From contig JAPUFX010000066.1 in the NCBI GenBank assembly GCA_027293415.1, positions 9,779-73,778 of the forward strand: a DNA stretch of 64,000 nt, in the 5' to 3' direction. The notes under the pieces are model-generated. The model worked only from the letters and a program-made list of their open reading frames with translations. It was not told the DNA's origin and ran no database searches. The DNA is from Candidatus Methylomirabilota bacterium. Its GTDB lineage: Bacteria > Methylomirabilota > Methylomirabilia > Methylomirabilales > CSP1-5. Positions 9,733-63,158 of this stretch are shown here, one piece after another; the first letter of the stretch is position 1, and every line of letters starts with the position of its first letter. A program made the translations under genes and the position numbers.

Positions 9733-9801
9733 TCTGCAGCCAGTAGCCAGCTTGGGGATCCAAAAGCTGACTGCCGAAAGCTGATGGCGGACAGCTGCCA
9801 G
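9733..9801. repeat. Heptad inverted repeat, class B (GCTGAYR words)
   Basis: Left arm ctgcagccagtagccagctt, right arm aagctgactgccgaaagctgatggcggacagctgccag. The inner helix is CAGCTT/AAGCTG. Confidence 0.6.
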
Positions 9802-9811
9802 TGAGAAGAAC

Positions 9812-9961
9812 ATGCGAGAGATCATCGCCTTAGGCTGCACGGATTGCAAGCGTCGCAACTATTCGACGACGAAAAATAAGAAAAATACACCGGACCGGCT
9901 GGAGCGGAAGAAATATTGTCGGTGGTGTCGGAAGCACACCACCCACAAAGAAGTCAGGTAG
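9812..9961 (+). CDS. rpmG: 50S ribosomal protein L33 (zinc-ribbon form)
   Basis: Hand-translated 49 aa: [49 protein letters not shown]. Below the ORF-track size cutoff. Confidence 0.9.
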
Positions 9962-10131
9962 CGGTGATGGGGAAATGGTTTCGTCCTTGCGTGCGGAGGG
10001 CTTTTATGGAGGCGACCGGGAGGGCGTCGCCGGTTACGGGGGAGGCAGCCCCCGAAGCCTTTCGCCGAAGGGTGAAAAGGGAGCTTCGCTGAGGGGTGTC
10101 GGAAGGGGGTCCTGCCCCCTCCGAGGAAGGT

Positions 10132-10207
10132 AGGCCAGTAGCTCAATTGGCAGAGCACCGGTCTCCAAAACCGGCGGTTGGGGGTTCAAGTCCCTCCTGG
10201 CCTGCCA
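10132..10207 (+). tRNA. tRNA-Trp (anticodon CCA)
   Basis: Acceptor stem aggccag/ctggcct, anticodon loop ct-CCA-aa, T-loop GGTTCAAGTCC, and CCA. Confidence 0.92.
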
Positions 10208-10212
10208 GATGA

Positions 10213-10290
10213 GTTCAGGGTTGAGAGTTCAGCGTTCAGAGCTTGGGAGCTTCGGTTCTGCTCTGAACCATGAACCGTGAACTGTGAACC
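10213..10290. repeat. Heptad inverted repeat, class A (GTTCAGR words)
   Basis: Left arm GTTCAGG GTTGAGA GTTCAGC GTTCAGA GC. Right arm GC TCTGAAC CATGAAC CGTGAAC TGTGAAC. The inner 9 bp pair perfectly. Confidence 0.8.
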
Positions 10291-10304
10291 CCGGAGGGAA
10301 GTCG

Positions 10305-10499
10305 GTGCGGGACTGGATCGGGAAGACCACCCGGTTTCTGAAGGAAGTTCGGACTGAGATGGGGAAGGTGAGTTGGCCTCCGCGCAAGCAGGTCATCGGC
10401 TCGACCGCCGTCGTCATCGTCTCGGTGTTCATTGTGTCTTTATTCTTGGGACTAGTCGACGTCATTGTTCGAACGGTCATGGCGACCGTCCTTCGTTGA
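10305..10499 (+). CDS. secE: Preprotein translocase subunit SecE
   Basis: Single C-terminal TM segment and the conserved KVSWP motif. GTG 10305 follows GGAGGG. The track start GTG 10284 lies inside the repeat arm, so it is less likely. Confidence 0.85.
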   Translation: MRDWIGKTTRFLKEVRTEMGKVSWPPRKQVIGSTAVVIVSVFIVSLFLGLVDVIVRTVMATVLR

Positions 10500-10500
10500 T

Positions 10501-11055
10501 ATGAGTGTGCATACGTTAGAACAGAAAGAACAACGGTGGTACGTGGTTCACACCTACTCGGGGTTCGAGAGCAAGGTCAAGTCGAGCATCGAGCAGAGGG
10601 CGACTACCCTGGGCCTCCGAGAAAAAATCTCGGAAATCCTGATCCCCACCGAGGATGTGGTTGAACTCAAGAAGGGGAAGAAGCGAATCGCGTCCCGCAA
10701 GTTCTTTCCCGGTTACGTCCTTATCCGGATGGAGATGTCAGATGATTTGTGGTACCTGGTCCGCAGCACCCCAAAGGTGACCGGGTTTGTCGGACCCGGG
10801 ACCCGGCCCATCCCCATCCCCGAGGAGGAAGTTGCTCACATCCGCCAGCAGGTGGAGGAAGGCGCGGAGAAGCCCAAGCATAAGGTCCAGTTTGTACGGG
10901 GCGAGGCGGTCCGGGTCATTGATGGTCCCTTTACCAACTTCACCGGCATCGTTGACGAGATTAGACCCGAGAAGGGACGGCTCAAAGTTATGGTAAGCAT
11001 CTTTGGTCGACCCACGCCGGTGGATTTAGAGTTTTTGCAAGTGGAGAAAGTATAA
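10501..11055 (+). CDS. nusG: Transcription termination/antitermination factor NusG
   Basis: WYVVHTYSGFESKV NGN domain and a KOW C-terminus. ATG 10501 comes directly after the secE stop. The track start 10465 overlaps secE. Confidence 0.93.
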   Translation: MSVHTLEQKEQRWYVVHTYSGFESKVKSSIEQRATTLGLREKISEILIPTEDVVELKKGKKRIASRKFFPGYVLIRMEMSDDLWYLVRSTPKVTGFVGPGTRPIPIPEEEVAHIRQQVEEGAEKPKHKVQFVRGEAVRVIDGPFTNFTGIVDEIRPEKGRLKVMVSIFGRPTPVDLEFLQVEKV

Positions 11056-11062
11056 AGAAAAG

Positions 11063-11138
11063 CAGTCAGCAATCAGCCGTCAGCGACCAGCAAGATCAAG
11101 AGGAAATTCAGTGCTGACAGCGGACTGCTGATGGCTGG
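11063..11138. repeat. Heptad inverted repeat, class B
   Basis: Left arm CAGTCAGCAATCAGCCGTCAGCGACCAGC. Right arm GTGCTGACAGCGGACTGCTGATGGCTGG. Confidence 0.75.
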
Positions 11139-11150
11139 AGCAGGGCGACA

Positions 11151-11576
11151 ATGGCGAAGAAAGTCGTGGCAATGGTGAAGCTGCAAGTCCCGGCAGGCAA
11201 GGCGAATCCTTCTCCGCCGGTAGGTCCGGCCCTCGGGCAGCACGGTGTGAACATCATGGAGTTCTGCAAGGCCTTTAACGCAAAGACCCAACAGCAAGAG
11301 GGGCTGATCATCCCGGCGGTGATCACCGTCTATGCCGATCGTTCTTTTACCTTTATCACCAAGACCCCGCCCACCTCTATCCTGCTGAAGCAAGCTGCGG
11401 GGATCGCGCAGGCCTCTAAGGAGCCGAACCGGGTCAAGGTAGGAAAGGTGACTCGGGCCCAGGCACAAGAGATTGCCAAGACCAAGCTCCCGGACCTCAA
11501 TGCTAATTCCCTCGATGCGGCTGTCCGGATCGTGGAGGGAACGGCCCGGAGCATGGGAATCGAAGTCGTTCCATGA
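11151..11576 (+). CDS. rplK: 50S ribosomal protein L11
   Basis: 141 aa. [34 protein letters not shown]. Confidence 0.97.
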
Positions 11577-11579
11577 ATA

Positions 11580-11744
11580 CAGCTATCAGCTGTCCACTGT
11601 CCGCAGAGAACAGCTGGAAGGCCAGGAGGCTGGGACGCTAGAACACGAGAACGGGTGGATGCCGAATTCCTTGTTTGGGTTCGTGCTTTCCAGCTTACGA
11701 GCGTTCTAGCATCCCAGCAGTTTATTACGGACTACTGATAGCTG
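11580..11744. repeat. Nested long-range inverted repeat with class B words in the rplK-rplA spacer
   Basis: Outer pair cagctatcag (11580-11589) with ctgatagctg (11735-11744). Inner pair gctgggacgctagaac (11629-11644) with gttctagcatcccagc (11703-11718), 15 of 16 complementary. Confidence 0.7.
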
Positions 11745-11766
11745 GCAGCTTTGCTGGAGGAAAGGG

Positions 11767-12477
11767 GTGGCGCAGCACTCGAAGCGATTTGCCAAGGCGG
11801 TGACGACGGTGGCGGAACGGGCGCCGCAGCCCGTCGACCTCAAGACAGCCATCTCTGTGCTCAAAGCGGTGGACTCGGCCAAGTTCAACGAGACCATGGA
11901 GGTAGCGGTGCGTCTCGGCGTGGACCCGCGGAAGGCCGATCAGATGATCCGGGGGACGGTAGTCCTTCCGCACGGGACCGGCAAATCAGTCCGGGTTCTG
12001 GTCTTTGCCAAGGGAGAAAAGGAAAAAGAGGCGCAGGAGGCAGGGGCCGACCTCGTGGGTTGCGAGGATCTGATGGAGAGGATTCAGCAGGGGTGGTTGG
12101 AATTTGACCGGGCCATTGCCACGCCTGATGTCATGGGCCAAGTGGGGAAGTTGGGAAAGATCCTGGGTCCCCGGGGGCTCATGCCCAACCCCAAAACAGG
12201 GACGGTCACCTTTGATGTCGGCCGAGCGGTCAAGGAGTTTAAGGCGGGCAAAATCGAGTACCGGGTGGATAAGGCCGGCATTATCCATGCCCCTTTTGGG
12301 AAGGTCTCTTTCTCGGAGGATCAACTGACGGAGAACGCCGCCGTCCTCCTCGAGGCCCTGGTCCGGGCAAAGCCCCCGACGAGCAAGGGGAAGTTCCTCA
12401 AAGCAATTTCCATCTCTTCGACGATGGGGCCGTCGGTTCAGGTCGACGTAGGCACCATTTCCGGGGGAGCCAAGTAG
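11767..12477 (+). CDS. rplA: 50S ribosomal protein L1
   Basis: 236 aa. GTG start after GGAGGAAAGGG. Typical L1 sequence. Confidence 0.96.
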
Positions 12478-12525
12478 GCGGTCGCAGCGGAGAGCCGCGG
12501 AGGCCTCGAACGAGTAGGGAGAGAA

Positions 12526-13071
12526 GTGATGGTTCGGGTATCAGCAAGGCGCCAGGCACGGGTAGAAGAAGTCGAGCGACTGAAGGAGAGGTTTCGGGAC
12601 GCTAAGAGTATGGTCCTGACCGATTATCGGGGCCTGACGGTCGCCGAAATCACGGCGCTCCGGCGTGCGCTGCGTGAGGCCTCTGCTGAATACCGAGTCG
12701 TGAAGAATAGCCTGGCTCAACTCGCCGCTCAAGAGTTGGGGATCGAAGAGCTTGAGCGGTACTTGAAGGGACCGACAGCCGTGGCCTTCGGCTCAGGGGA
12801 TCTGGTGGCGACGGCCAAAATCCTGACTGCCTTTTCCAAGAAGGCTCCGGTCCTTCAAGTAAAGGTGGGAGTCGTGGATGGCCAGCTCCTACCACGGGAA
12901 GAGGTTCTGGCCATGACAGAGCTTCCACCTCGCGAGGTGATGCTGGCCCGTCTCTTGGGGGTCATGGCGGCCCCGCTCAGCGGTCTCGTCACCGTGCTGT
13001 CCGGCTCTCTCCGGGGGCTTGTGGTCGGCTTGGATCAGGTCCGGCAGAAAAGAGAGGGGATCGAAGGATGA
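12526..13071 (+). CDS. rplJ: 50S ribosomal protein L10
   Basis: 181 aa in the position between rplA and rplL. Start is GTG 12526 or ATG 12529. Confidence 0.93.
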
Positions 13072-13120
13072 ATCAGAGCAACATGGAACGATCCGTGGGA
13101 AACGCCGACAGGAGGGACTT

Positions 13121-13519
13121 ATGGCACAGGGAAAAGTAACGGTCCAAGATTTTCTTGAATCCATCGACACGTGGACGATCCGGGATCTTCATGAGGCGGT
13201 CAAGGCCCTCGAGGAGAAGTACGGCATATCTGCCGCCGCTGTGGCTGCGCCGGCGGCGATGGCCCCGGGGGCTGCTGCTCCCGGCGCGGTAGCGCCTGCT
13301 GAGGAGCAAACCGAGTTTGCGGTTATCCTGGCCAGTATCGGCGAGAAGAAGATCCAGGTGATCAAGGAGGTTCGGGCCATCACTAACCTGGGTTTGAAGG
13401 AGGCCAAGGACTTGGTCGATGGTGCCCCCAAGCCGGTGAGGGAGGGCGTCTCGAAGCAGGAAGCAGAAGAGATCAAGGCCAAGTTGGAAGGGGCGGGTGC
13501 CACAATCGAGGTCAAGTAG
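13121..13519 (+). CDS. rplL: 50S ribosomal protein L7/L12
   Basis: ATG 13121 after GGAGGGA. Ala-rich hinge and C-terminus [40 protein letters not shown]. The track start 13019 is a spurious extension. Confidence 0.96.
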
Positions 13520-13620
13520 CGTTGGGCATCCCAAATTTCCCGTGGAGCCGATCCCCGGCGAACAATGTTCTCGTCTGGGGACAGTCGTGGGACCTTTCAC
13601 ACTAATGAGGTGGATATAGC

Positions 13621-25361: not shown

Positions 25362-25362
25362 T

Positions 25363-25452
25363 GTCCACAGTCCAAAGTCCAAGGTCGAAAAAGAGCAAAA
25401 CACCTGGTGACTTTGGACGTTGGACATTGGGCATCAGACAGACGTTGGACAT
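25363..25452. repeat. Heptad inverted repeat, class C (GTCCAAN words)
   Basis: Left arm GTCCACA GTCCAAA GTCCAAG GTC. Right arm GACTTTG GACGTTG GACATTG, plus an extra GACGTTGGACAT at 25441-25452. Confidence 0.8.
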
Positions 25453-25458
25453 TTCGTC

Positions 25459-27102: not shown

Positions 27103-27186
27103 CAACTGGCAATCTGCTGTCTGCTATCTAGCTCTTCTCAAGGAAATGTTGACTGCTGATGGCTGACAGCTGGCAGCTGAAGAGCG
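27103..27186. repeat. Heptad inverted repeat, class B
   Basis: Left arm GCAACTG GCAATCT GCTGTCT GCTATCT AGC. Right arm GCTGATG GCTGACA GCTGGCA GCTGAAG AGC. Starts directly after the rplW stop. Confidence 0.75.
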
Positions 27187-32023: not shown

Positions 32024-32030
32024 CTTGCCA

Positions 32031-32117
32031 GTTCAGAGTTCATGGTTCACAGTTCAGGGTCGGGTGAGCACGATGACCTTGTACAAGTCCCTGAATCATG
32101 CACCGTAAACCCTGAAC
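32031..32117. repeat. Heptad inverted repeat, class A
   Basis: Left arm GTTCAGA GTTCATG GTTCACA GTTCAGG GTC. Right arm CCTGAAT CATGCAC CGTAAAC CCTGAAC. Confidence 0.8.
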
Positions 32118-32128
32118 GGAGTAGCTCA

Positions 32129-32524: not shown

Positions 32525-32528
32525 CGAC

Positions 32529-32597
32529 AGTCCGACGTCCACAGTCCAAGGTCCAACGTCGGTAATGGGAAAGGTCCTGTGACTTTGGACTTCGGAC
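32529..32597. repeat. Heptad inverted repeat, class C
   Basis: Left arm AGTCCGAC GTCCACA GTCCAAG GTCCAAC GTC. Right arm GGTCCTGT GACTTTG GACTTCG GAC. Confidence 0.8.
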
Positions 32598-32614
32598 CCT
32601 TTAGGGTGATTACG

Positions 32615-37308: not shown

Positions 37309-37602
37309 ATGCGCAAGAGGTCCGCTGGACAGCGCAGAAAGAGGTCCGCTGGACAGCGCAAAAAGAAGTCCGCTGGACAAACCCAAAAGAAGGAAGAGGC
37401 GATCGAGGTCGAAGGGACCGTGGTCGAGCCCTTGCCGAACGCCATGTTTCGGGTGGAGTTCGAGACGGGCCACAAAGTGCTGGCCCACATATCGGGGAAG
37501 ATGCGGATGCATTTTATCCGGATCCTCCCGGGGGATAAAGTTATTGTGGAGCTCAGTCCCTACGATCTGAGCCGAGGTCGCATCATTTATCGCCATAAGT
37601 AG
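37309..37602 (+). CDS. infA: Translation initiation factor IF-1 with a repeat-encoded basic N-terminal extension
   Basis: ATG 37309 after AGGAGGT. The conserved core is [68 protein letters not shown]. It is preceded by [28 protein letters not shown]. No in-frame start lies closer to the core. Confidence 0.9.
37315..37386 (+). repeat. 24-bp tandem repeat x3 inside the infA 5' coding region
   Basis: Copy 1: aagaggtccgctggacagcgcaga. Copy 2: aagaggtccgctggacagcgcaaa. Copy 3: aagaagtccgctggacaaacccaa. Confidence 0.9.
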
Positions 37603-37604
37603 TT

Positions 37605-37677
37605 GTCGGCTGTCAGCAGTCCGCAGTCAGCTTTGACCCGCGATAGTAATTGCTGACAGCTGATGGTTGACAGCAGG
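37605..37677. repeat. Heptad inverted repeat, class B
   Basis: Left arm GTCGGCT GTCAGCA GTCCGCA GTCAGCT. Right arm GCTGACA GCTGATG GTTGACA GCAGG, running into the rpmJ SD AGGAGG. Confidence 0.8.
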
Positions 37678-37799: not shown

Positions 37800-37863
37800 C
37801 GCAGACAGAAGACCGATGACCGTCGTAACCGGGTCGTCGATCAACGGATGACGAGGAGGACAA

Positions 37864-40820: not shown

Positions 40821-40857
40821 AGCCCTGGAACAACTACGGTTTCAGGGCTTTTCTTTT
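40821..40857 (+). terminator. Rho-independent terminator after rplQ
   Basis: Stem agccctg / cagggct with a 14-nt loop, followed by TTTTCTTTT. Confidence 0.7.
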
Positions 40858-40869: not shown

Positions 40870-41334
40870 CTACTCCTCCTCTATTGTGCCAGTGTACTCG
40901 ATGGCGATCCCCCGCCGTACGCTCTGCGAGGCAGGACACCCCTTCTCATGGATTTCGATCGCCCGCTCAGCGTCCGAACGTTTTCCCTGAGGAACCTTCA
41001 CGTGATAGCGCACGCTGATCTTGGTGATCAGCGGGTGCCCATCGACGTTTTCAATAGAGCCCTCGACCTCTGACCAGAGTTTATCCGGGTGCGTCGGAAT
41101 CTTCCGCGCCGCTAGCGCCACGGCTAGCGTGCCCGTCATTCAGCCCGCCACAGCAGAAATCACGTGATCGAGCGTGGTCGGCAAATCCTCTTCCGGCTCC
41201 ACCCCGTAAAATTTCTTGATCCCGCCGTGGATCCCGTAGTGCACCGGCTCCGTGAATGACTCGATGTAGGCTCGCCGGACCGGCCCTTTGTCTTTGAAGA
41301 TCTTGGTCTTCGAGGTGTGGATCAGTTCTCCCAT
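40870..41334 (-). CDS. OsmC/YhfA-family protein with an in-frame TGA at the conserved Cys position (candidate selenoprotein; track ORFs 41140..41334 and 40870..41139 joined)
   Basis: The two adjacent same-frame minus ORFs read ...DHVISAVAG-TGA-MTGTLAVALAARK... . The second family Cys is present in HEKGCPASQS. A strong SD AGGAGG precedes ATG 41334. The joined length of 154 codons fits the family. Confidence 0.6.
41108..41132 (-). promoter_or_regulatory. SECIS-like mRNA hairpin downstream of the in-frame UGA
   Basis: The mRNA reads UGA AUG ACG GGC A CGCUAGC CGUGGC GCUAGCG GC. A 7-bp perfect stem plus 2 extra pairs starts about 11 nt after the UGA, with G and U in the 6-nt apical loop. Confidence 0.45.
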
Positions 41335-41561: not shown

Positions 41562-43649
41562 ATGAAGGCTTACGAAATCACGCAGATCCGGAATGTGGGG
41601 ATCGTTGCCCATGGACAGGAGGGAAAGACCTCCTTGACGGAGGCAATCCTCTTTGACACCGGGGCGCTGACCCGCCTTGGACGAGTAGAAGAAGGGAATA
41701 CCGCGACCGACTTTGACGAGGGTGAGATCAAGCGGGGGATCAGTATCAGCTCGGCCGTCGCCTTCTGTGAGTGGAAGGGGGTCAAGGTGAATCTCATCGA
41801 TACCCCCGGCTTCTCCAACTTTCTTCCCGACACCCGGATGTGCCTGCGCGTGGCGGATATCGCCCTCATCCTGGTCAGTGCGGTGGACGGGATCAAGGTC
41901 CAGACAGAAAAGGTCTGGGGATATGCGGAGGAGTATGGCCTGCCGGGTGTCTTCTTTGCGAACAAAATGGATCGGGAACGGGCGGATCTTTTTCGTACGG
42001 TCGAGGATATTCGAAAAGGCTTGCATCCCGCAGCCATCCCCTTGCAAATCCCCATAGGGGCCGAGGCTGGCTTCCGCGGGGTGGTGGATCTGTTGGCGAT
42101 GAAGGCGTACACCTTCCAGACCGACGGATCGGGAAAGTTCAAGGAGGAGGAGATACCGGCCGAGCTCAAGGACCGGGCGGGAGAGCTCCAGCATACGCTC
42201 GTTGAGGCGGTGGCGGAGTCGGAAGATAGCTTGCTTGAGCGCTATCTCGAGAGTGGCACGCTGAGCCCCGAAGAGCTGCGGACCGGCATCCGACGGGCTA
42301 TCGCCGCCAGGAAACTCTTCCCCGTCCTTTGCGGGTCGGCGTTAAAGAACATCGGCATCCAGCCTCTACTCGATGTCTTAATCGATATCTGCCCCTCTCC
42401 CTTGGATCGGCCGCTGGTGGAGGGAAAAGACACGAAGTCAAAGGAACGGGTTTCACGGGAGGCGCGGCCAGATGCACCGCTCACGGCGTTGATCTTTAAG
42501 ACCATTGGGGATCCTTACGCCGGCAAGATCAGCGTTTTCCGGGTGTATGCCGGCCGACTGAGTACCGATAGTAGTGTGTATAACGCCGTCAAAGAGACGA
42601 GAGAGCGGATCGGACAGGTATCGCTCCTTCGGGGAAAGCACCAGGTCCCCGTCGACGAAGTGGGCCCGGGAGACATCGGAGCTGTGGTAAAGCTGAAGGA
42701 GACTAGTACAGGGGATACGCTTGCCGACGAAAAATCTTCCATCCTGCTCGACCCCCTCCCTGTGCCCACACCCCTGATTTCTTACGCCATCGCTCCCAAG
42801 TCCAAAGGAGATGAGGAAAAACTGTCTGGGGCCTTAAGCCGCCTCCTGGAAGAGGACCCTAGCCTTAAGGTGAGCCGGGACCAGCAGACCAAGGAGACCA
42901 TTATCTCCGGAATGGGGAAGGTCCACTTGGAGGTGGCGGTGGAACGACTCAAGCGGAGGTTCGGCGTAGACGTCGCCATGAAGACCCCTCGTGTACCGTA
43001 CAAGGAGACGATCCGGGGGACCGCCTCCGTGCAGGGGAAATACAAAAAACAAACGGGGGGCCGTGGACAATACGGCGACTGCTGGATCAAGCTCGAGCCC
43101 ATGCCGCGGGGTGAGAAATACGAATTTGCCAATCAGATCGTCGGCGGGGTGATCCCCAGACAATACATCCCGGCCGTGGAGAAGGGGGTCGTGGAGGCGA
43201 TGGAACGAGGGGTCTTGGCCGGCTATCCCGTGACCGGCGTCAAGGTGAGCCTCTATGATGGATCGTTCCATTCAGTGGACTCTTCGGAGATGGCCTTTAA
43301 GATCGCCGGCTCCATGGCCTTGAAGAAGGGGGTTCAACAGGCCACCCCCATCCTTCTCGAACCGATTATGGCGGTCGAGGTGAGCGCCCCCGACGATGCG
43401 ATCGGGGATGTGATCGGCGATCTCAATTCTCGGCGGGGGCGGGTCATGGGGGTAGAGGGCAGGAGCAAGGGCCAGGTCATCAAGACGCTCGTCCCTCTCG
43501 CGGAAATGCTGGAGTATGCCCCCCAGCTGCGTTCCCTGACCGCAGATCGGGGAGACTACACCATGGAGTTTTCGCATTACGAGGAAGTTCCGGCCCACAT
43601 CCAGGAAAAGCTGGTGGCCGAGGCCAAGCAGGAAGAAAAAGGGGCCTAA
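41562..43649 (+). CDS. Elongation factor G paralog (EF-G2-like translational GTPase)
   Basis: ATG 41562. 695 aa with G motifs AHGQEGKTS, DTPGF and NKMD, and EF-G domains II-V. Clearly diverged from the str-operon fusA. The track start 41376 is a spurious extension. Confidence 0.85.
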   Translation: MKAYEITQIRNVGIVAHGQEGKTSLTEAILFDTGALTRLGRVEEGNTATDFDEGEIKRGISISSAVAFCEWKGVKVNLIDTPGFSNFLPDTRMCLRVADIALILVSAVDGIKVQTEKVWGYAEEYGLPGVFFANKMDRERADLFRTVEDIRKGLHPAAIPLQIPIGAEAGFRGVVDLLAMKAYTFQTDGSGKFKEEEIPAELKDRAGELQHTLVEAVAESEDSLLERYLESGTLSPEELRTGIRRAIAARKLFPVLCGSALKNIGIQPLLDVLIDICPSPLDRPLVEGKDTKSKERVSREARPDAPLTALIFKTIGDPYAGKISVFRVYAGRLSTDSSVYNAVKETRERIGQVSLLRGKHQVPVDEVGPGDIGAVVKLKETSTGDTLADEKSSILLDPLPVPTPLISYAIAPKSKGDEEKLSGALSRLLEEDPSLKVSRDQQTKETIISGMGKVHLEVAVERLKRRFGVDVAMKTPRVPYKETIRGTASVQGKYKKQTGGRGQYGDCWIKLEPMPRGEKYEFANQIVGGVIPRQYIPAVEKGVVEAMERGVLAGYPVTGVKVSLYDGSFHSVDSSEMAFKIAGSMALKKGVQQATPILLEPIMAVEVSAPDDAIGDVIGDLNSRRGRVMGVEGRSKGQVIKTLVPLAEMLEYAPQLRSLTADRGDYTMEFSHYEEVPAHIQEKLVAEAKQEEKGA

Positions 43650-44212: not shown

Positions 44213-44217
44213 TGTCA

Positions 44218-44280
44218 GTCTAAGGTCCAACGTCCAAGGTCCAACGGTACGGCACCATGTAACATAGACGTTGGACCTTT
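44218..44280. repeat. Heptad inverted repeat, class C
   Basis: Left arm GTCTAAG GTCCAAC GTCCAAG GTCCAAC GGT. Right arm GACGTTGGACCTTT. Confidence 0.78.
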
Positions 44281-45703: not shown

Positions 45704-46276
45704 ATGACTGCGGTCTCACGAGCGACTCCAGAGCGAACCTGCGTGGGTTGTGGGCGGAGACGAGAACAGGAGGAACTCGTTCGGTTCAGTGGCGGTCCGG
45801 CTGGGCTGCGCGCGTATCTGGAGAGGGGGGAAGGACGGGGAGCGTATCTCTGTCCCGACGCTGGATGCCTGGAACGGACGGTGAGGCGGAAGGCATTACA
45901 GCGAGCTCTTGGAGCGGAACTCGGCCCGTTGAGTGTTCAGCAGCTTCGGGAGTCGATCCAACAGGCAGTCCTTCAGAAGGTCCAAAGGCTCCTCGGCCTG
46001 GCTCGAAGAGCCAAAAGAGTCGTAGCGGGCTCCAGGGCGGTTTCGCGAGCGCTGCAGGCAGATAGAATTCGACTTCTCCTATTAAGTCGGGATATCTTGC
46101 CGCAAGGGGAAAAACAATTTCGGGTTGAGGCAAAGAGGCGTGGGGCTGCTATAGTGACTTTGTTCTCCCGGGATGAGCTGGGAGCGCCACTCGGCGGTCC
46201 GCGAGAAGTGGTCGGGATTTTAGATGGGAGCTTTGCCCATGGCATCCTCCAGGCCGTGCGGTACTGGATCCCGTGA
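45704..46276 (+). CDS. Fusion of YlxR/DUF448 RNA-binding domain and L7Ae/YlxQ-like domain
   Basis: The N-terminus [19 protein letters not shown] is the DUF448 signature. The C-terminal half ([34 protein letters not shown]...) is L7Ae-like. It sits between nusA and infB. Confidence 0.75.
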
Positions 46277-46326
46277 ACGACGGGGAGTGGCGGCCGGACG
46301 AGGAGCAGGAAGGGGAGGTGGTAGGC

Positions 46327-48753
46327 GTGAGTAAGATCCGGGTATTCGAGCTGGCCAAGGAGCTTGGCCTCTCCAACATAGAGGTCATCGAGCGCCTGGC
46401 AAAGGCGGGAGTCTCTGTAAAGAGCCACAGTAGCTCGGTGGACGAGGCGGCAGCCCGGGTAGTCTTATCAAAGCCAGGGGTCCGCGAAGAAAAGGTGGTA
46501 AAGAAGATAGCGAAGGAGAAACTTGCCCGAAAGCCGCCCGCGAAAGCTGAGGTAGCCAAGCGGGAAAAGGTGTCTGTTGAGGCAAAGCCTACCCCTGAGC
46601 GAAAAGTGGCAGCGAGACCGATCCCTGCGCCGCCTAGTCCGGCCCCAGAGGTGGAGACCAAGCCGAAGTCTCCGCCGACAGCGGTGAAGCGTCCCAGGGA
46701 GAAGGCCTCTCCCCGGCCCCCGGCCCGAGAGAAAGAGACGGTGGCCGTGAAGCCCAGACCTGCCACGGCGCCGCCCAAGCCGGCCGCACCACCCACACCT
46801 CCTTCGGAGGTAAAGCGTCCCCCAGTTGGGGTTCATCCTCCAGGGACTCCTGTAATAGAAAAGAGGGCTCCGGTGGCGGAACCGCCGTCCCGAGTGACGG
46901 CAGAACCGGCAGCGCCGACCGTCCCGGCCCCGCCGAAGGCGCCCGAGGTCACGGAACCGGTGAGCCCCCCGCTTGCCAAGGTAATCAAGATTCCTGAAAC
47001 GATCACCGTGAAGGAGTTCAGCGAGAAACTCGGCACTAGCCCCAGTGAGATCATTAAGAAGTTGATGAAGATGGGGATCATGGCCACCGTCAACCAGAAC
47101 CTGAATCCCGAACTGGTGAAGCAGGTTGCGGCTAAGATGGGTTTTGATGTGGAGATGGCCCCGGTTGAAGAGGTCGTCGCCGAAGTCGAGGACCCAACCC
47201 AACTCCGCTCCAGGCCACCCGTGGTGACGGTCATGGGGCATGTCGATCACGGGAAAACCTCTCTACTGGACGCCATCCGGCATACCGACGTCATTGCTGA
47301 AGAGGTGGGAGGAATCACTCAGCATATCGGTGCATATGAGGTGGAGCTCCCCCCGGACACTTCGGAAAAGTTTCCCGGTGGTCGCGTGGTCTTTCTAGAT
47401 ACCCCTGGGCATGAAGCCTTCACCTCGATGCGGGCGCGGGGGGCACGTGTGACCGATGTGGTGGTGTTAGTCGTGGCCGCCGATGACGGGGTGATGCCCC
47501 AGACCGTTGAGGCCATAAATCATGCCAAGGATGCGAATGTTCCGATTCTGGTCGCCATTAACAAGATCGACAAGCCGGACGCGGACCCCAACCGGGTGAA
47601 GCAGCAGCTGTCCGAATATGGGCTCATCCCGGAGGAGTGGGGGGGACAAACCATCTTTGTTGAAGTCTCTGCCAAAAATCGACTCGGTATCGAGGATCTC
47701 TTGGAAATGCTCCTCCTGCAGGCAGAGATCATGGAGCTGAAGGCGAATCCTTTCAAGCCGGCGAGAGGAGTGGTGGTCGAGGCGAAACTCGACCGGGGCC
47801 GGGGTCCGGTGGCCACCGTGCTCGTTCAACAGGGGACGCTCAGGATCGGGGATGTGTTCGTGGTCGGCAGTCGGTATGGGCGTGTCCGAGCCTTGTTCAG
47901 CGACAAAGGGCAAAAAGTTCAAGAGGTCGGCCCCGCGACCCCGGTGGAGATCTTGGGTCTCTCCGGTGTTCCGGGCGCCGGGGATGCCTTCGGCGCGGTC
48001 GCTGACGAGCGGAAGGCCCGGCAGGTAGCCTTGATCCGCCAGCAGCAGCAGCGGGACGATGTATTTGCCGCCCAACGCCGCCTGACGCTCGACGACCTGC
48101 ATGATCGGATCAGGAAGGGGGAGGTGAAGGAGCTCCGGCTGGTCCTCAAAGGGGACGTCCAGGGCTCCATCGAGCCGGTTAGGGAGTCACTGGAGCGGTT
48201 GAGCTCCCCAGAAATCAAGTTGAGGGTGATCCACTCAGGCGTGGGAGGGGTGAGTGAGTCAGATGTCATGCTTGCCTCCGCCTCGAATGCGATCATTCTC
48301 GGTTTCAATGTGCGCCCTGATCCGAAGGCCCAAAGGCTGGCGGGACAGGCGGCGGTGGAAATGCGGCTGTACACGGTCATCTACGATGCGGTCGCCGAGA
48401 TCAGGAAGGCGATGGAAGGGATGCTGGAGCCCCACTATGTCGAGCGGGGCATGGGTCGGGCCGAAGTCCGGGCTACTTTCAGCGTCCCCAAGCTCGGGAC
48501 GGTTGCCGGCTGCTACGTCAGCGATGGGAAGATCCTTCGGGATAGCGCCATGCGCCTTATCCGCGATAGCCGGGTCATCCATGAAGGGAAGATTGCCTCG
48601 CTCCGCCGCTTCAAAGAAGATGTCCGTGAAGTCCAGAGCGGCTATGAGTGTGGCATCGGTTTGCTGAACTTCAGCGATATCAAGGCGGGAGACATCATCG
48701 AGGTGTTCGAGCTGGTCCCCGTAGCCCCCAAGCTGCAACCGACCCATAATTGA
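46327..48753 (+). CDS. infB: Translation initiation factor IF-2
   Basis: GTG 46327 after GGAGGTG gives [13 protein letters not shown], the canonical IF-2 N-terminus. Pro/Ala/Lys-rich linker. [14 protein letters not shown] and NKID motifs. The track start 46273 is a possible alternative. Confidence 0.95.
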
Positions 48754-55042: not shown

Positions 55043-55044
55043 CC

Positions 55045-57666: not shown

Positions 57667-57676
57667 GGGGGGGATC

Positions 57677-58390
57677 ATGGAGCGGCGCGGGAAGATCTAT
57701 GAGGGTAAAGCCAAGATCCTCTACGAGACCGACAACCCGGATTTGGTGATCCAGTACTTCAAGGATGAGGCGACGGCATTTAACGCCCAGAAGCGGGGGA
57801 TCATTGAACGGAAGGGGATCTACAACAACCGGATCTCGTCGGTCCTCTTCGAGTATTTAGGGAAACAGCGGGTCCGGACCCACTTCGTGCAGCAGCTATC
57901 CGACCGGGAGATGTTGGTCAAGCGACTCGAGATCATCAAGATCGAAGTTGTGATAAGGAATATGAGTGCCGGGAGTCTGTCCAAGCGCCTGGGCCTCGAG
58001 GAGGGTATGCCTCTCGCGGAGCCGGTCCTTGAGTTCTTTTACAAGAATGACGTCCTCAACGACCCCCTGATCAACGACGATCACGTTCGGCTTCTGAACC
58101 TTGCTACCCCGCAAGAGGTAACAGCCCTCCGAAAACGGGCCCTCCTGGTCAACCACCACCTCCGGGAGTTCCTTGATAAGTGTGATTTGATCCTGGTGGA
58201 CTTCAAGCTCGAGTTTGGGCGCCATCACGGGCAGATCTTGCTCGGCGATGAGATTACACCTGATGGGTGCCGCCTCTGGGATAAGCAGACCCTCGAGAAG
58301 ATGGACAAGGATCGATTCCGCAGAGATCTCGGCAAGGTGGAAGAGGCGTACCAGGAGGTGTACCGTCGTATCTGCGGCGACGGGGCGTAG
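57677..58390 (+). CDS. purC: Phosphoribosylaminoimidazole-succinocarboxamide synthase
   Basis: ATG 57677. IYEGKAKILYETDNPDLVIQYFKDEATAFN. Confidence 0.95.
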   Translation: MERRGKIYEGKAKILYETDNPDLVIQYFKDEATAFNAQKRGIIERKGIYNNRISSVLFEYLGKQRVRTHFVQQLSDREMLVKRLEIIKIEVVIRNMSAGSLSKRLGLEEGMPLAEPVLEFFYKNDVLNDPLINDDHVRLLNLATPQEVTALRKRALLVNHHLREFLDKCDLILVDFKLEFGRHHGQILLGDEITPDGCRLWDKQTLEKMDKDRFRRDLGKVEEAYQEVYRRICGDGA

Positions 58391-58513
58391 GGGGCGGTTC
58401 GGGAAAGGCCTCCTCATCGTCCTCTCCTCCCTCCGAGGTCGGCCTTCCCCTCACCGCTGACGCGGTACTAGCAGCGGTCCACTTGAGGCATTGGAGTAAT
58501 TGGAGTAATTTGG

Positions 58514-58536
58514 TGACAGCTGATCGCTGACAGCTC
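58514..58536. repeat. Class B word run (single arm) before purS
   Basis: tgacagc tgatcgc tgacagc tc, immediately upstream of the purS SD GGGAG. The 9-nt tandem ttggagtaa x2 at 58491-58508 lies next to it. Confidence 0.5.
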
Positions 58537-58546
58537 GGGAGACTGA

Positions 58547-58795
58547 ATGATTCGGGCAAAGGTATACGTGACACTCAAGAGGGGCGTGCTTGATCCACAG
58601 GGCGAGACGGTCAGGGGGGCGCTCGAGACGCTGGGGTTTGCGGAGGTGCAGGATGTTCGGATTGGCAAGTTTATGGTGATCACCCTCAATGCGGTGAATC
58701 GGGAAGACGCCACGAAAAGTGTAGAAGAAATGTGCAAGAAGCTCCTGGCCAACCCGGTCATCGAAGACTACCGCTTCGAGTTGGAGGAAGGGTAG
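58547..58795 (+). CDS. purS: Phosphoribosylformylglycinamidine synthase subunit PurS
   Basis: 82 aa. VYVTLKRGVLDPQGETV. Confidence 0.93.
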   Translation: MIRAKVYVTLKRGVLDPQGETVRGALETLGFAEVQDVRIGKFMVITLNAVNREDATKSVEEMCKKLLANPVIEDYRFELEEG

Positions 58796-59506
58796 GTGCG
58801 ATTCGCGATTATCGTCTTTCCCGGATCCAACTGCGAGCTGGATTGCCAGTGGGTGCTCCACAAGGTCCTGGGGCAAGAGGCAGAGCTCGTCTGGCATAAG
58901 GAAAAGGACCTGAAGGGTTACGATTGCCTGGTCTTGCCGGGGGGGTTTGCCCATGGGGATTATCTCAGAACGGGGGCCGTCGCGCGTTTCTCCCCGATCA
59001 TGAAAGCGGTAGAGCAGCACGCTCGGGGGGGCGGATTGGTGCTCGGGATCTGCAACGGATTTCAAGTTCTCTGCGAGGCCGGACTCCTCCCCGGCGTCCT
59101 GCTCAGAAACACCAGCCTGAACTTTATCTGTCGGGATGTGTACATGCGCGTGGAGACCCCGGAGACACCCTTCACGGCCACCTGCACCGCACGGCAGGTC
59201 CTGCGCGTCCCCATCAACCACAATGAGGGACGGTATTATGCGGATGCCGAGACCCTGGCACGCCTGAAAGACAACGGCCAGGTGGTGTTCCGGTATGTGA
59301 ATTCGGCAGGCGAAATTTCGGATGAGGCGAACCCGAATGGGTCGTTGGACCATATCGCCGGTGTCTGTAACGGACAGAGAAACGTCCTTGGGCTGATGCC
59401 GCACCCTGAGCGGGCGGCGGAAACAGTGCTTGGATCCGCGAGCGGCCGGATCCTTTTTGAGTCGATCATCAGCTCCGGTCAAGCCCTCTCTTCCACCAGT
59501 CGGTGA
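58796..59506 (+). CDS. purQ: Phosphoribosylformylglycinamidine synthase subunit PurQ (glutaminase)
   Basis: 236 aa. FPGSNCE...GICNGFQ catalytic Cys, and HPE at the C-terminus. Confidence 0.95.
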   Translation: MRFAIIVFPGSNCELDCQWVLHKVLGQEAELVWHKEKDLKGYDCLVLPGGFAHGDYLRTGAVARFSPIMKAVEQHARGGGLVLGICNGFQVLCEAGLLPGVLLRNTSLNFICRDVYMRVETPETPFTATCTARQVLRVPINHNEGRYYADAETLARLKDNGQVVFRYVNSAGEISDEANPNGSLDHIAGVCNGQRNVLGLMPHPERAAETVLGSASGRILFESIISSGQALSSTSR

Positions 59507-59509
59507 CGC

Positions 59510-61735
59510 ATGAAAGAACCCGCGATTACCCAAGAAACCATCGCCGCGCACAGTTTGACGCACGAGGAGTACCAGCGTATCCTCGAAATTCTGGGGCGCG
59601 AACCCACCTTTACGGAGTTAGGGATCTTCTCGGTCATGTGGTCCGAGCACTGTAGCTACAAGAGCTCCAAGGTCCATCTTCAGCACTTTCCCACCTCCGG
59701 GCCCAGGATCTTGCAAGGGCCGGGGGAAAATGCCGGGGTGGTCGACCTGGGGGAGGGGCTCACAGCCGTCTTTAAGATGGAAAGCCATAATCATCCTTCG
59801 TACATCGAGCCCTACCAAGGAGCGGCGACAGGGGTGGGTGGAATCATCCGGGACATCTTCACCATGGGGGCGCGTCCGATCATGCTCTTAGACTCCCTTC
59901 GTTTCGGCCCCCTGACCGAGGCCAAGAACCGGTATCTCATGGGTGGGGTGGTGGCAGGGATCTCCGGATACGGGAATGCGGTGGGAGTTCCCACCGTGGG
60001 AGGTGAAGTGGTCTTTGCCGACTGCTACAGCCATAACCCGCTCGTGAACGTGCTCTGTTTAGGGATCGCTCCCATCGATAAGCTCTTCTTTGCGCACGCC
60101 GGGGGGATCGGGAATCCAGTGATCTATGTAGGGGCAAAGACGGGTCGGGACGGGATCCACGGCGCGACGATGGCCTCGGAGACCTTTGACGAGAAGAGTG
60201 AGGAGCGCCGCCCCACCGTGCAGGTTGGCGATCCGTTCCGCGAGAAACTCTTGATCGAGGCCTGCCTGGAACTCATGCAGACTGATACGCTGGTTGGTGT
60301 GCAGGACATGGGAGCGGCCGGCCTCACCTGCTCGAGTTGCGAAATGGCCAGCCGGGGTGGGACCGGCGTCGAAATCGATATCCAGCTCGTTCCGCGCCGG
60401 GAAGAGGGGATGAGCCCGTACGAGGTAATGCTCTCTGAATCGCAGGAACGGATGCTGCTGGTGGTCCGCCAGGGGGCCGAGGCGACCGTTCGCGAGATCT
60501 TTGCCAAGTATGATCTCGACGCAGTGGTCGTGGGCCGGGTGACGGGCGATGGAGTAATGCGGGTGCGGGAGGGAAAACGCACCGTGGCCTCGATCCCGGT
60601 GAAGGCACTCGTGGACGATGCCCCTGTGTACCACCGACCACTGACCCGGCCCGCCTGGCAGGATGACATTCAGCGCCTGAACGTCGACGATATCCCCCTG
60701 CCTCGCGACTATGGAGACGTGCTCTTGCAACTGTTGGCCTCCCCGACCATCGCGTCGAAGGCCATGGTGTGGGAGCAGTATGATCACATGCTCTTTTTGA
60801 ACACGGTGGTTGGACCAGGCTCTGATGCGGTCGTGCTCCGACTCAAAGGGACAGAGAAAGGCATCGCGGTATCCACTGATGGGAACGGGCGATACACCTT
60901 CTTGGATCCCTTCACGGGGGGGATGATTGCTGTGGCCGAAGCGGCCCGGAACGTGGTGGCAAGCGGCGGCGAGCCCGTCGCCATCACTAACTGTCTCAAC
61001 TTCGGTGACCCGACGCGTCCCGAGATCTCCTGGCAGTTCGCCGAGGCGGTTCGCGGGATGGCGGCTGCCTGCCGCATCTTGCAGACACCGGTCACCGGAG
61101 GGAATGTGAGCTTTTACAATGAGACCATGGGAAAGGCCGTCTTCCCTACACCGATCGTGGGGATGCTGGGCATCTTGGCCCACATCTCGCACGCCACTAC
61201 CCAGACCTGGAAGGAGACCGGGGACGTAGTGGTCCTCTTGGGCGAGACACGCGAGGAGTTGGGGGGGAGTGAATATCTGAAGGTCTGCCATGGGATGGTG
61301 CAGGGCCGACCACCGACCGTGGACCTGGAGTTAGAGCGCCGGGTCCAGGGATGCTGTTTGGAAGCGATCCGGGCCGGACTGGTTCGCTCTGCCCATGACT
61401 GCTCAGACGGGGGGCTCGCGGTGACTTTAGCCGAAGGGTGCGTCAGCAATCCCGATAAGCCGATCGGCGTCGACGTAAACCTGGCGGATTCCCTCCGTCC
61501 GGATGCGCTCCTTTTTGGCGAGAGCCAGTCCCGGATACTTCTCTCCCTCCGGGAGGCGGACTTGAATAGGGTCCAGGCGATCGCCGACCACTATGGGGTG
61601 GCGGTCACTCTGATAGGGCGGACGGGCGGCTCCCGATTCATCTGCAAGGGGCAAACGTTTCATCTGGACCTGCCGCTCTCCCTTCTCGATCAGGCTTGGC
61701 GCGGAGCCGTTCCCACCTACTTCGGACAGCGTTGA
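59510..61735 (+). CDS. purL: Phosphoribosylformylglycinamidine synthase subunit PurL
   Basis: 741 aa. ESHNHPS motif. Confidence 0.96.
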
Positions 61736-61745
61736 CGGAGGAGGC

Positions 61746-63044
61746 ATGAAGACCATCAATATCGGCCTCGTGGGTTTCGGGACGGTCGGAGTCGGGGTAG
61801 TGAGGCTGTTCCAGGACCAGGCCGTGCTGCTCGAGCGACGTGTGGGGGCGCGACTCCTGGTCAAGCGGATCGCCGATATCGACCTCGCGAGGGTGCGAGA
61901 CGTGGAGGTGGATCCTAATGTCCTTACCTCGGATGCGCGAGAGGTCACCGAGGATAAGACAATCGACATCGTGATCGAGCTCATCGGGGGTACCACAGTG
62001 GCTCGCGACGTGGGGCTTGCGGCGCTGAGGAATGGGAAGCACTTGGTCACGGCCAACAAAGCCCTCCTCGCCACCCACGGCCTCGAGCTGTTTAGGGCAG
62101 CGGCCGAACACCGAGTCGATTTAGGATTTGAGGCCAGCGTCTGCGGCGGGATCCCGATCATCCGGGCGGTCCGAGAGGGTCTCGTTGCCAACCGAATCCT
62201 CTCCATTACCGGAATTGTGAACGGTACCTGCAACTATATCCTCACGAAAATGACGGAACTTGGAGCTCCGTTCGCAGAGGTCCTCGAAGAGGCCCAGGTC
62301 AAGGGATACGCCGAGGCAGATCCGTCGCTTGACATCGACGGCATTGATACTGCCCACAAGCTCCAGATCCTCGCCTCGATAGCCTATGGGGGCACCGTGG
62401 ACTTTGATGCCATCCATATCGAGGGGATCCGCGAGGTCGACCCCGCGGATATCCAGTATGCAAAGGAGCTGGGATACCGGATCAAGCTGTTAGCCATCGC
62501 CAAAGAGGCCGATGGCAAGGTCGAGGTACGGGTTCACCCCACCTTGGTCCCCGAAGACCACCTGCTTGCCCCAGTCGGGGGGGTCTATAACGCCGTCTAT
62601 ATCGTGGGTGACGCCACCGGATCCTTGATGTTTTCCGGAAGGGGAGCCGGGCAGATGCCGACGGCCAGCGCCGTCGTCAGCGACGTTGTCGAGATCGCCC
62701 AGAACATCCTCCATGGGCGCCCGTCGAGACCATCGCATGTCCGTGAGATCGCCGGTGAGGGCTTGAGGATTCGACCCATGGAGCAGGTCCGGACCCGGTA
62801 CTACCTGCGGGTGATGGCTGTCGACAAGCCGGGAGTTCTCTCAAAGGTCTCGGGGATCCTTGGAGAGCACGACATCTCTATCGCTTCAGTGATCCAGAAG
62901 GGGCGGCATGCCAAAGCAAGTGTCCCAGTCGTCATGATGACCCACGAGGCGGTGGAGGGAGCGATGCAAAAAGCTCTTGGAGGGATCAAGGCCCTCGATG
63001 CGGTGACGGGGAAGACGATCTGCATCCGTGTCGAGGAAGCCTGA
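61746..63044 (+). CDS. hom: Homoserine dehydrogenase
   Basis: 432 aa. NAD-binding N-terminus GLVGFGTVG, catalytic domain and a C-terminal ACT domain. Confidence 0.94.
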   Translation: MKTINIGLVGFGTVGVGVVRLFQDQAVLLERRVGARLLVKRIADIDLARVRDVEVDPNVLTSDAREVTEDKTIDIVIELIGGTTVARDVGLAALRNGKHLVTANKALLATHGLELFRAAAEHRVDLGFEASVCGGIPIIRAVREGLVANRILSITGIVNGTCNYILTKMTELGAPFAEVLEEAQVKGYAEADPSLDIDGIDTAHKLQILASIAYGGTVDFDAIHIEGIREVDPADIQYAKELGYRIKLLAIAKEADGKVEVRVHPTLVPEDHLLAPVGGVYNAVYIVGDATGSLMFSGRGAGQMPTASAVVSDVVEIAQNILHGRPSRPSHVREIAGEGLRIRPMEQVRTRYYLRVMAVDKPGVLSKVSGILGEHDISIASVIQKGRHAKASVPVVMMTHEAVEGAMQKALGGIKALDAVTGKTICIRVEEA

Positions 63045-63047
63045 TAA

Positions 63048-63158
63048 GTTCACGGTTCAGAGTTCAGAGTTGAGAGTGCAGAGTGCAGAGTTCAGGGAAA
63101 GGATAACACCTTTTTTTTGCTGTTTCAGCGCTGAACCCTGAACCATGAACCCTGAACG
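63048..63158. repeat. Heptad inverted repeat, class A (largest copy)
   Basis: Left arm GTTCACG GTTCAGA GTTCAGA GTTGAGA GTGCAGA GTGCAGA GTTCAGG. The centre contains a T8 run. Right arm GCTGAAC CCTGAAC CATGAAC CCTGAAC. Confidence 0.85.

Follow-up and report, generated by a model that had tools for sequence, protein, structure and literature searches.

Genes and repeated elements in the window

The intergenic spacers of a 64-kb stretch of DNA (hereafter the window; G+C content 59.7%) from a metagenome-assembled genome of candidate division NC10 (Methylomirabilales) contain a family of palindromic arrays of 7-nucleotide (nt) words, named here heptad hairpins. The gene map, which is based on gene calls on near-identical public contigs and on Pfam, starts with radA-carD-...-cysS-rlmB, followed by four tRNA genes, tuf, rpmG, a tRNA-Trp gene and secE-nusG-rplKAJL-rpoBC. 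Then come rpsLG-fusA, the S10, spc and alpha operons and a second gene for elongation factor G (EF-G), and finally rimP-nusA-infB-...-rpsO-pnp, pur genes and hom-thrC. The + strand carries all genes but two, osmC and a small adjacent gene (40870-41334), and intergenic DNA makes up 4,178 nt, or 6.5% of the window. In public collections, the proteins of the window are entered as those of a candidate division NC10 / Candidatus Methylomirabilales MAG. RimP, homoserine dehydrogenase and the PALP-domain threonine-synthase-like protein, whose genes flank the rimP-nusA and hom-thrC elements, were confirmed. Public contigs and loci that were compared with the window are designated by L-numbers (L008, L142, L223 etc.).

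Ten strong elements were found in the 64 kb. In each, tandem copies of a 7-nt word are followed by a unique centre and then by tandem copies of the complementary word. A preliminary description of this DNA had reported such arrays with inverted partners in spacers between co-directional genes, and they were indeed recovered at those sites. All 11 junctions that it named were correctly identified, but its count of about 15 elements was too high, as three cases beside the ten strong ones (tuf-rpmG, rpmJ-rpsM and purC-purS) are marginal and the fusA-rpsJ spacer contains none. The genes flanking every element are co-directional, and the elements begin 0-8 nt past the stop codon of the first gene and end shortly ahead of the ribosome-binding site of the second, which stays outside the stem in the spacer sequences of the window and of its relatives. 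The three word classes proposed, A (GTTCAGN, with GTTCAGR paired to YCTGAAC), B (GTCAGCN/GCTGAYR) and C (GTCCAAN/NTTGGAC), are all present, but they are part of an open-ended set, the relatives using further words (CGATGAC, GGTGATT, GGGTTAG and GGAATGN).

All elements are given on the + strand, with the free energy of folding (dG, in kcal/mol) and the z-score against shuffled sequences. Class A is found between tRNA-Trp and secE (10211..10291; dG -38.8, z -4.45), with 4.5 units of GTTCAGN in the left arm (10211-10242), 4.5 units of NNTGAAC in the right arm (10260-10291) and a centre of 17 nt; this hairpin is kept in L228. It is also found between rpsN(Z) and rpsH (32028..32119; arms 32028-32059 and 32089-32119, partly degenerate; dG -35.4, z -3.5). 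The largest element, between hom and thrC (63046..63157; dG -44.7, z -5.9), belongs to the same class and has seven units on the left (63046-63097), five on the right (63123-63157) and a 25-nt centre with a T8 run.

Class-B arms occur between nusG and rplK (11062..11141; GTCAGCN-type arm 11062-11091, GCTGAYR-type arm 11113-11141; dG -28.9, z -2.3), between infA and rpmJ (37603..37675; arms 37603-37631 and 37652-37675; dG -30.8, z -4.4) and, in a class-B-like form, between rplW and rplB (27108..27179; arms 27108-27132 and 27151-27179; dG -27.7, z -2.6). The element between rplK and rplA (11580..11750) is nested, with outer class-B arms at 11580-11606 and 11728-11750 that enclose an inner hairpin at 11629-11718. 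The 190-nt spacer folds into a double hairpin (dG -80.6, z -5.1). The long inner hairpin is missing in L228, where the outer heptad stem alone is present, and Rfam gave no L1-type leader at 11629-11718.

Class C is represented between rpsJ and rplC (25362..25453; dG -33.4, z -5.8), where the GTCCAAN arm (25362-25387) directly follows the stop codon and the NTTGGAC arm is at 25408-25433, between rpsH and rplF (32528..32598; arms 32528-32562 and 32573-32598; dG -31.3, z -2.9) and between rimP and nusA (44214..44279; dG -26.1, z -3.6), with a long left arm (44214-44247) and a short right arm (44267-44279). The right arm of the rpsJ-rplC element also contains a 25-nt direct duplication (GACGTTGGACATT..., window 25416-25453), which is missing in L142.

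Among the marginal cases, tuf-rpmG (9732..9799; arms 9732-9751 and 9766-9799) is weak, degenerate and B-like and folds no better than shuffles (z -0.9); the orthologous spacer in L229 measures only 38 nt and is without repeats. Between rpmJ and rpsM (37802..37847), a junction absent from the preliminary description, the window has a short remnant of a CGATGAC-type hairpin (z -0.4), recognisable only through the relatives L224, L226 and L227, which have full-size heptad hairpins there. The purC-purS spacer holds a lone class-B array (GCTGAYR x3, 58512..58536) with no convincing inverted partner; given its z-score of +0.6 it was rejected as a hairpin and retained merely as an array. The fusA-rpsJ spacer was rejected altogether, as it reaches a period-7 score of 10/14, yet has a z-score of +1.5.

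Periodicity and distribution of the repeats

Tandem Repeats Finder detected period-7 and period-14 arrays at the sites named in the preliminary description. With a threshold of at least 11 matches out of 14, there are 16 period-7 segments, and all but one (15) lie between genes. This concentration is specific to period 7, period 14 alone behaving similarly, while periods 6, 9 and 12 are confined to coding DNA and periods 4, 5, 8, 10, 11 and 13 are rare. In the spacers, 5-mers recur at a distance of 7 nt 66 times, versus 5-11 times at other spacings. Compared with dinucleotide shuffles, from which the expected counts were derived, the two-unit pattern of class A (GTTCANNGTTCA) matches 12 times (0.04 expected), that of class C (GTCCANNGTCCA) seven times (0.14 expected) and the three-unit pattern of class B (CAGC-N3-CAGC-N3-CAGC) four times (0.01 expected). 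All these multi-unit matches lie in spacers. Positions 6 and 7 of the unit are free, and copies of the same class have unrelated centres and only the word in common. The repeat family is genuine, and its statistical support is overwhelming.

Predicted folding and alternative registers

The arms had been described as reverse complements of each other. The inverted pairing is real, but it is not perfect: helices are short, most often 2-6 bp, and are interrupted mainly by symmetric internal loops (85 of the 1x1 and 28 of the 2x2 type) and occasionally by a bulged whole unit. Nine of the ten elements in the first folding set beat their shuffles (z -2.3 to -5.9), and among the 11 spacers named beforehand ten fold far better than shuffles, the exception being tuf-rpmG. 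The elements have a dG of -26 to -47 kcal/mol, an imperfect stem of 20-35 bp and a loop of 10-30 nt.

The suggestion that heptad arms allow pairing in several registers was also borne out. In seven of nine elements tested, a shift of the pairing by exactly 7 nt costs only 0.2-6 kcal/mol relative to the best fold; in nusG-rplK the register shifted by -7 is only 1 kcal/mol higher and in infA-rpmJ that shifted by +7 is within 0.2 kcal/mol. The other two have alternative registers shifted by 14 and 21 nt, at 8-13 kcal/mol above the optimum.

Non-palindromic centres of 10-30 nt strongly disfavour the extrusion of cruciforms out of duplex DNA, so the folding species should be single-stranded RNA, or single-stranded DNA during replication. 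Of 45 spacers, 31 fold better as the sense strand and 14 as the antisense strand (-2.7 kcal/mol in favour of the sense strand, p ~5e-4). As mononucleotide shuffles reproduce this bias (-3.0 kcal/mol), it is attributable to base composition.

Comparison with other classes of intergenic sequence

No element was flagged by a terminator scan of the window, and no T-tract follows any of the stems, in agreement with the preliminary view that these are not ordinary terminators. The same scan does detect the canonical hairpin and T-tract (40821-40849) with which the alpha operon ends, past rplQ. Matches to the promoter consensus were at chance level. At the gathering threshold, Rfam recognised only 5 tRNAs in the window, and no spacer was matched even at E <= 1. 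The preliminary view that they form no named repeat family is correct only in part, as the elements do belong to a described kind of sequence, that of the short tandemly repeated repetitive (STRR) sequences and long simple-sequence repeats discussed below.

CRISPR arrays had been excluded and can be discarded, since they consist of 23-50-nt direct repeats with unique spacers, whereas the units here are 7 nt long, contiguous and provided with an inverted partner; the sole CRISPR-like Rfam match (E = 0.88) is inside a gene elsewhere. Integron attC core sites have the form GTTRRRY/RYYYAAC. The likeness of GTTCAGR/YCTGAAC to these sites, and to the tRNA T-loop, was considered and dropped, the match being partial and the orientation opposite.

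The elements share several features with the REP/BIME/REPIN palindromes, namely their extragenic location in co-directional or convergent spacers, imperfect palindromy, non-terminator hairpins in mRNA and strain variation per site. However, each REP is a copy of a conserved sequence of 20-40 nt that includes a conserved tetranucleotide at the 5' end, and REPs are associated with a RAYT transposase. Here the copies have only a 5-6-nt word in common, the arms are periodic, neither a palindrome nor centre or ends are conserved, and spacers of the same class are ~58% identical overall. The genes found in the 64 kb include no transposase, of the RAYT type or other. The elements are likewise no miniature inverted-repeat transposable elements (MITEs), as neither flanking duplications nor a common internal sequence were found in the spacers of the window and of its relatives.

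Variation among close strains

The four spacers between tuf and rplA were compared with those of contigs that share more than 99% identity with the window, and the only differences in length are whole 7-nt units. L008 lacks 7 nt in the right arm of tRNA-Trp>secE and has 7 nt more (TGCTGAC) in nusG>rplK. In addition, L131 has 7 extra nt (GGACATT) in the rpsH>rplF spacer. Such whole-unit indels are the signature of slipped-strand mispairing. An apparently longer rplK-rplA spacer in L010 was discarded as an expansion, as it is a scaffold gap of Ns.

L142 is 96.9% identical to the window over 20 kb. The elements differ by 19.9%, compared to 5.5% for other intergenic DNA and 2.3% for coding DNA, and thus diverge about four times faster than the other spacer DNA. 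Three elements are essentially different in L142: rpsH>rplF is of class A there and of class C in the window, infA>rpmJ is of class C there and of class B in the window, and rpsJ>rplC is of class C with other units. The density of single-nucleotide polymorphisms in the flanking genes is at background. The rpsH>rplF spacers of L142 (class A) and L223 (class C) are only 54% identical, yet they lie between flanks that are identical over at least 120 nt and at least 240 nt. Mosaics among close strains could be chimeras assembled from strain mixtures.

Orthologous spacers across NC10

Further NC10 relatives were retrieved by homologues of ribosomal protein S8 (six genomes; 97, 95, 94, 83, 82 and 75% identity) and of NusG (three genomes). 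In a metagenome scan with S8, one close relative (L142) was found, the other 79 loci being from other phyla. In the comparison of orthologous spacers proposed in the preliminary description, six junctions (rpsJ>rplC, rplW>rplB, rpsN>rpsH, rpsH>rplF, infA>rpmJ and rpmJ>rpsM) are still occupied over eight NC10 genomes with S8 proteins 75-100% identical. The rpsN>rpsH element is of class A in all eight genomes, rplW>rplB is of class B in all relatives but L227, which has the two genes directly adjoining, and rpsJ>rplC is of class C throughout, with a GTTCGAC variant in L227. At other junctions the class varies. rpsH>rplF is of class C or A depending on the genome, with a class-A hairpin in L142 and L222 despite flanks identical to those of L223, and infA>rpmJ is of class C in 6 of 7 relatives and of class B in the window and L226. 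The relatives have yet other words at rpmJ>rpsM. In the most distant lineages, repeats have been lost at some junctions and hairpins with new words (GGGTTAG, GGAATGN) gained at others.

In every relative the two arms match each other, for instance GTCCAA/TTGGAC in one and GTCCGA/TCGGAC in another. Both arms thus change jointly, and the stem survives drift or replacement of the word. The RNAalifold consensus of six NC10 rpsJ>rplC spacers has 21 pairs, five of them with compensatory changes.

The distribution of classes at rpsH>rplF and infA>rpmJ is incongruent with the tree of the flanking genes. Spacers of the same type from distant lineages are 0.59-0.73 identical, compared to 0.58-0.59 (maximum 0.70) for unrelated spacers of the same class. 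This is hardly above the baseline. It is the type-specific heads and tails, which are short stretches, that hint that both spacer types may be old and that distant lineages may have ancient alleles in common. Cassette exchange, recurrent switching and old polymorphism are all compatible with the replacement of one class by another.

Two of the words found in relatives recall known heptamers, in both cases probably by coincidence. GGGTTAG/CCCTAAA in the tRNA-Trp>secE spacer of L230 (around 750-857) resembles the plant telomere heptamer, and AGTGATT (reverse complement AATCACT) at rpmJ>rpsM of L227 fits the WATCACW motif of plasmid omega repressors.

Occurrence in other phyla and in viruses

A scan for four GTTCANN units in one genome per GTDB species gave at least 120 loci. 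The matches listed come from Acidobacteriota, Planctomycetota, Verrucomicrobiota, Bacteroidota, Cyanobacteria, Desulfobacterota, Gemmatimonadota, Methylomirabilota and others, and 35 of 120 loci among them have an inverted pair of heptad arrays within 150 nt. According to crude ORF calling on the matches listed, the hairpins of other phyla are in co-directional (22), convergent (10) and divergent (5) contexts. They often span the interval from the end of one gene to the start of the next, as between ybaB and recR in L036 or at four consecutive junctions in L078. The preliminary description had associated the elements with translation operons; the junctions of these operons do carry them, but this reflects the gene content of the window, as hom-thrC has one too and all kinds of spacers are occupied elsewhere. 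Further copies were found on other NC10 contigs (L040, L041, L043 and L125).

Several loci of 8 kb (e.g. L014, L044, L078, L092 and L115) contain two to four hairpins of unrelated words. In Acidobacteriota, hairpins of different words occupy up to four junctions per 8 kb (L078 3233-6222, L014 2355-7815 and L044 803-3651), a density that suggests hundreds to thousands of heptad hairpins per genome. Across the phyla, the constants are the period of 7 and the palindromic layout, not the word.

In IMG/VR, a 30-base palindromic pattern was found in 12 stretches on 8 viral contigs. Contigs of high G+C content have several GGTTCAG-type hairpins each (L240 3375-3448 and 4479-4553; L242 43-115 and 3232-3304; also L232 and L235). 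These viral hairpins have a common centre (GACGCGCAAGCGG), and in that host or virus the whole element may be copied.

Relation to known heptanucleotide repeats

The heptanucleotide repeats of cyanobacteria were recognised around 1990; CCCCAGT, TTGGTCA and CAACAGT are the classic STRR consensus heptamers. None of these three is present in the NC10 elements. STRR units usually measure 7 bp, and an STRR hairpin has been described between the co-transcribed genes hupS and hupL (PMC2670836). Its proposed role is in transcript stability or translational coupling, pausing or termination being mentioned as one possibility (PMC2670836). The NC10 elements share with STRRs the tandem 7-bp units, the intergenic location, often between co-transcribed genes, and the inverted arrays that form a stem-loop; they differ by the host phylum (NC10/Methylomirabilota) and by the words GTTCAGN, GTCAGCN and GTCCAAN. 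The resemblance, put forward as conceptual in the preliminary description, is thus closer than that, given the hupS-hupL hairpin and the paired arrays of Geobacter (PMC2700814).

In Geobacter metallireducens, paired arrays of tandem 7-9-nt units on opposite strands, for instance between proB and proA, were reported as 'global regulator sites' of classes 1-3 and read by the authors as binding sites for IHF/HU (Aklujkar 2009, PMC2700814). Like the NC10 elements, these sites are multicopy, intergenic and composed of two arrays of 3-5 units on opposite strands at a variable distance. However, they also include units of 8-9 nt, belong to another phylum and were presented without comparative or folding analysis. 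TAACTGA direct heptamers have been found in marine Beggiatoaceae, Cyanobacteria and Bacteroidetes (MacGregor 2015, PMC4679880). They too are heptamer arrays directly upstream of start codons, inside ribosomal-protein operons as well, and are scattered over phyla, but a single word is involved, 169 sets are direct versus one inverted, and the arrays are at most a few nt away from the start codon and replace the ribosome-binding site. In the account of Mrazek et al. (2007) given in PMC4679880, units of 7 nt form the commonest class of long simple-sequence repeat in genomes rich in such repeats, and polymerase slippage is suggested. The unit of 7 and the non-coding location are as in our elements, whose exact 7-nt indels fit slippage; the arrays of that account are direct, in contrast to the paired inverted arrays with a conserved stem found here.

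In the literature searched, no such elements, nor their comparative behaviour, are described for NC10 or Acidobacteriota. As far as this search goes, what is new with respect to STRRs is the location at junctions of the ribosomal-protein and rpoBC clusters, the phylum-wide orthologous series, the 7-nt polymorphism between strains and the switching of classes.

The locus supplies an orthologous series, lacking for the cyanobacterial cases, of conserved-operon junctions from 99.9% identical strains down to S8 proteins of 75% identity. It displays unit-by-unit slippage, concerted change of the arms and wholesale replacement of classes, and makes three questions testable: selection on the stem versus templated repair, action at the RNA versus DNA level, and evolution in situ versus exchange of cassettes. 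Judging from the scans, palindromic arrays are common and have received too little description; they occur in Acidobacteriota, Planctomycetota, Verrucomicrobiota and Bacteroidota as well as on viral contigs. In practice, these spacers are strain-level markers and a likely cause of bubbles in metagenome assemblies.

Origin and possible role

The identification of the elements as heptanucleotide simple-sequence repeats arranged as palindromes, i.e. as STRR-like heptad hairpins, is well supported. Their evolution proceeds by slippage of units and coordinated turnover of both arms, as the comparison of sequences demonstrates in part. As a whole explanation, we consider it probable that they are slippage-driven, self-complementary spacers of the STRR kind that fold away the untranslated intercistronic RNA. 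According to this model, the two arrays would pair into a stem in the polycistronic mRNA or in transiently single-stranded DNA. Whole 7-nt units would be gained or lost by slipped-strand mispairing, and the units of an array would be homogenised with both arms changing jointly, so that the word drifts or is replaced while the stem persists. Complementarity would be maintained either by selection on the stem or by hairpin-templated copying (quasipalindrome correction). The elements are most probably tolerated or selected, a self-pairing spacer being harmless or mildly useful in an operon transcript, in that it would shield exposed untranslated RNA against endonucleases, exonucleases and Rho. 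The hairpin would also draw the upstream stop codon near the downstream start, and transcript integrity and translational coupling might thereby be kept despite spacers of 70-130 nt, as has been proposed for the cyanobacterial STRR hairpins. We infer that it is in operon mRNA that the stem acts.

Several points weigh against this explanation. Any role at the RNA level is an inference, and, with composition controlled, the 45 spacers lack a G-U signature that would point to transcript-level selection. Template switching could keep the arms complementary without selection. Repeats have been lost at rplW>rplB in L227 and at nusG>rplK in L229 and L230, and such losses, together with the very fast divergence, fit neutrality as well. 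Slippage alone also leaves unexplained both the period of 7 and the difference in class of whole spacers on flanks identical over 120-240 nt.

The main rival is a functionless by-product: slippage would expand any 7-nt duplication arising in a spacer already present, hairpin-templated repair would make one arm a copy of the other, and the result would persist only through being harmless. This would suit the unit indels between near-identical strains, the divergence at four times that of other intergenic DNA and words that are arbitrary across genomes. Unconstrained slippage should, however, yield collapse or runaway arrays, and unequal arms, whereas six junctions keep hairpins of similar size (65-135 nt) in lineages with flanking genes only 75-80% identical, and the ribosome-binding site is consistently free. 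The occupation only of junctions that have a spacer, some of them lost in L227, L229 and L230, and the absence of a sense-strand-specific folding signal after composition control are again in its favour. On balance we regard it as rather unlikely.

It is improbable, in our view, that the elements form a distinct, phylum-spanning class with its own mechanism of generation or exchange. Such a mechanism might be a sequence-independent writer of period 7 (a property of the replisome or of repair, or a dedicated enzyme) or the swapping of hairpin cassettes at fixed junctions, maintained as old alternative types (A and C at rpsH>rplF, B and C at infA>rpmJ) in NC10 lineages and their viruses; either way, the register-sliding stem would be functional in operon mRNA. 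What sets the unit at 7 nt, and how one class comes to replace another, is the interesting part of the problem.

Mobile or exchangeable cassettes are disfavoured and seem quite improbable, whether they be REPIN/MITE-like elements mobilised by a recombinase (RAYT-type or other) or hairpins that lineages exchange at fixed sites. The mobilisation in the manner of REPs that the preliminary description envisaged gains no support, given the unique centres, the lack of conserved termini, GTAG motif and target duplications, and the lack of a transposase gene in the window. Moreover, rpsN>rpsH is always of class A and rplW>rplB always of class B over a deep divergence. Points in favour of cassettes are the whole-spacer replacement between L142 and L223 on identical flanks, the background level of flanking polymorphism, the incongruence with the gene tree at rpsH>rplF and infA>rpmJ, where the 3' tails are type-specific, and the presence of several copies per class per genome and of copies on viral contigs. 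Against this, the identity of same-type spacers barely exceeds that of unrelated ones, and the close-strain mosaics could come from chimeric assemblies.

Arrays bound as duplex DNA by a protein that reads 7 bp, such as an omega-type ribbon-helix-helix repressor, or IHF/HU or gyrase as for BIMEs and Geobacter, are likewise disfavoured and very unlikely. A polymerising DNA binder would impose a strict 7-bp period, and heptad-reading proteins exist, as plasmid omega repressors bind direct and inverted WATCACW heptads; binding is also how the Geobacter authors read their paired sites (PMC2700814). However, at least six unrelated words occur in one lineage, close strains can differ in the word at one and the same site, unit positions 6-7 are free, and binding requires neither complementary arms nor compensatory changes. 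Attenuators without a U-tract that tune the stoichiometry of the downstream gene, an equally disfavoured proposal that stable hairpins inside operons and the possibility of pausing or termination at the STRR hairpin (PMC2670836) might suggest, are extremely improbable, as the elements lie between genes of ribosomal proteins needed in equal amounts and have no T-tract after the stem, while the operon end at 40821-40849 uses an ordinary hairpin with a T-tract.

Other features of the window

The spacer between rpmG and tRNA-Trp (9962-10131, 170 nt) contains no heptads but has a very stable fold (-78 kcal/mol); its counterpart in L229 has a GGAATGN/NCATTCC heptad hairpin instead. The apparent spacer between map and infA, which has a 24-nt repeat, was rejected as a member of the family, as it probably extends infA in frame at the N-terminal end. 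This extension (37309-37401) contains three copies (37315-37389) of a 24-nt unit of eight codons rich in Lys and Arg; it is spacer-like but probably coding, and in L226 and L227 the same infA ATG runs almost straight into IF-1. The second EF-G paralogue (41562-43649) is located past the terminator of the alpha operon and downstream of the divergently oriented osmC-like gene pair. Finally, the infB genes of the window (46273-48753) and of L132 (3738-6299), two near-identical strains, differ by an in-frame indel of 81 nt (826 residues in the window vs 853 in L132).

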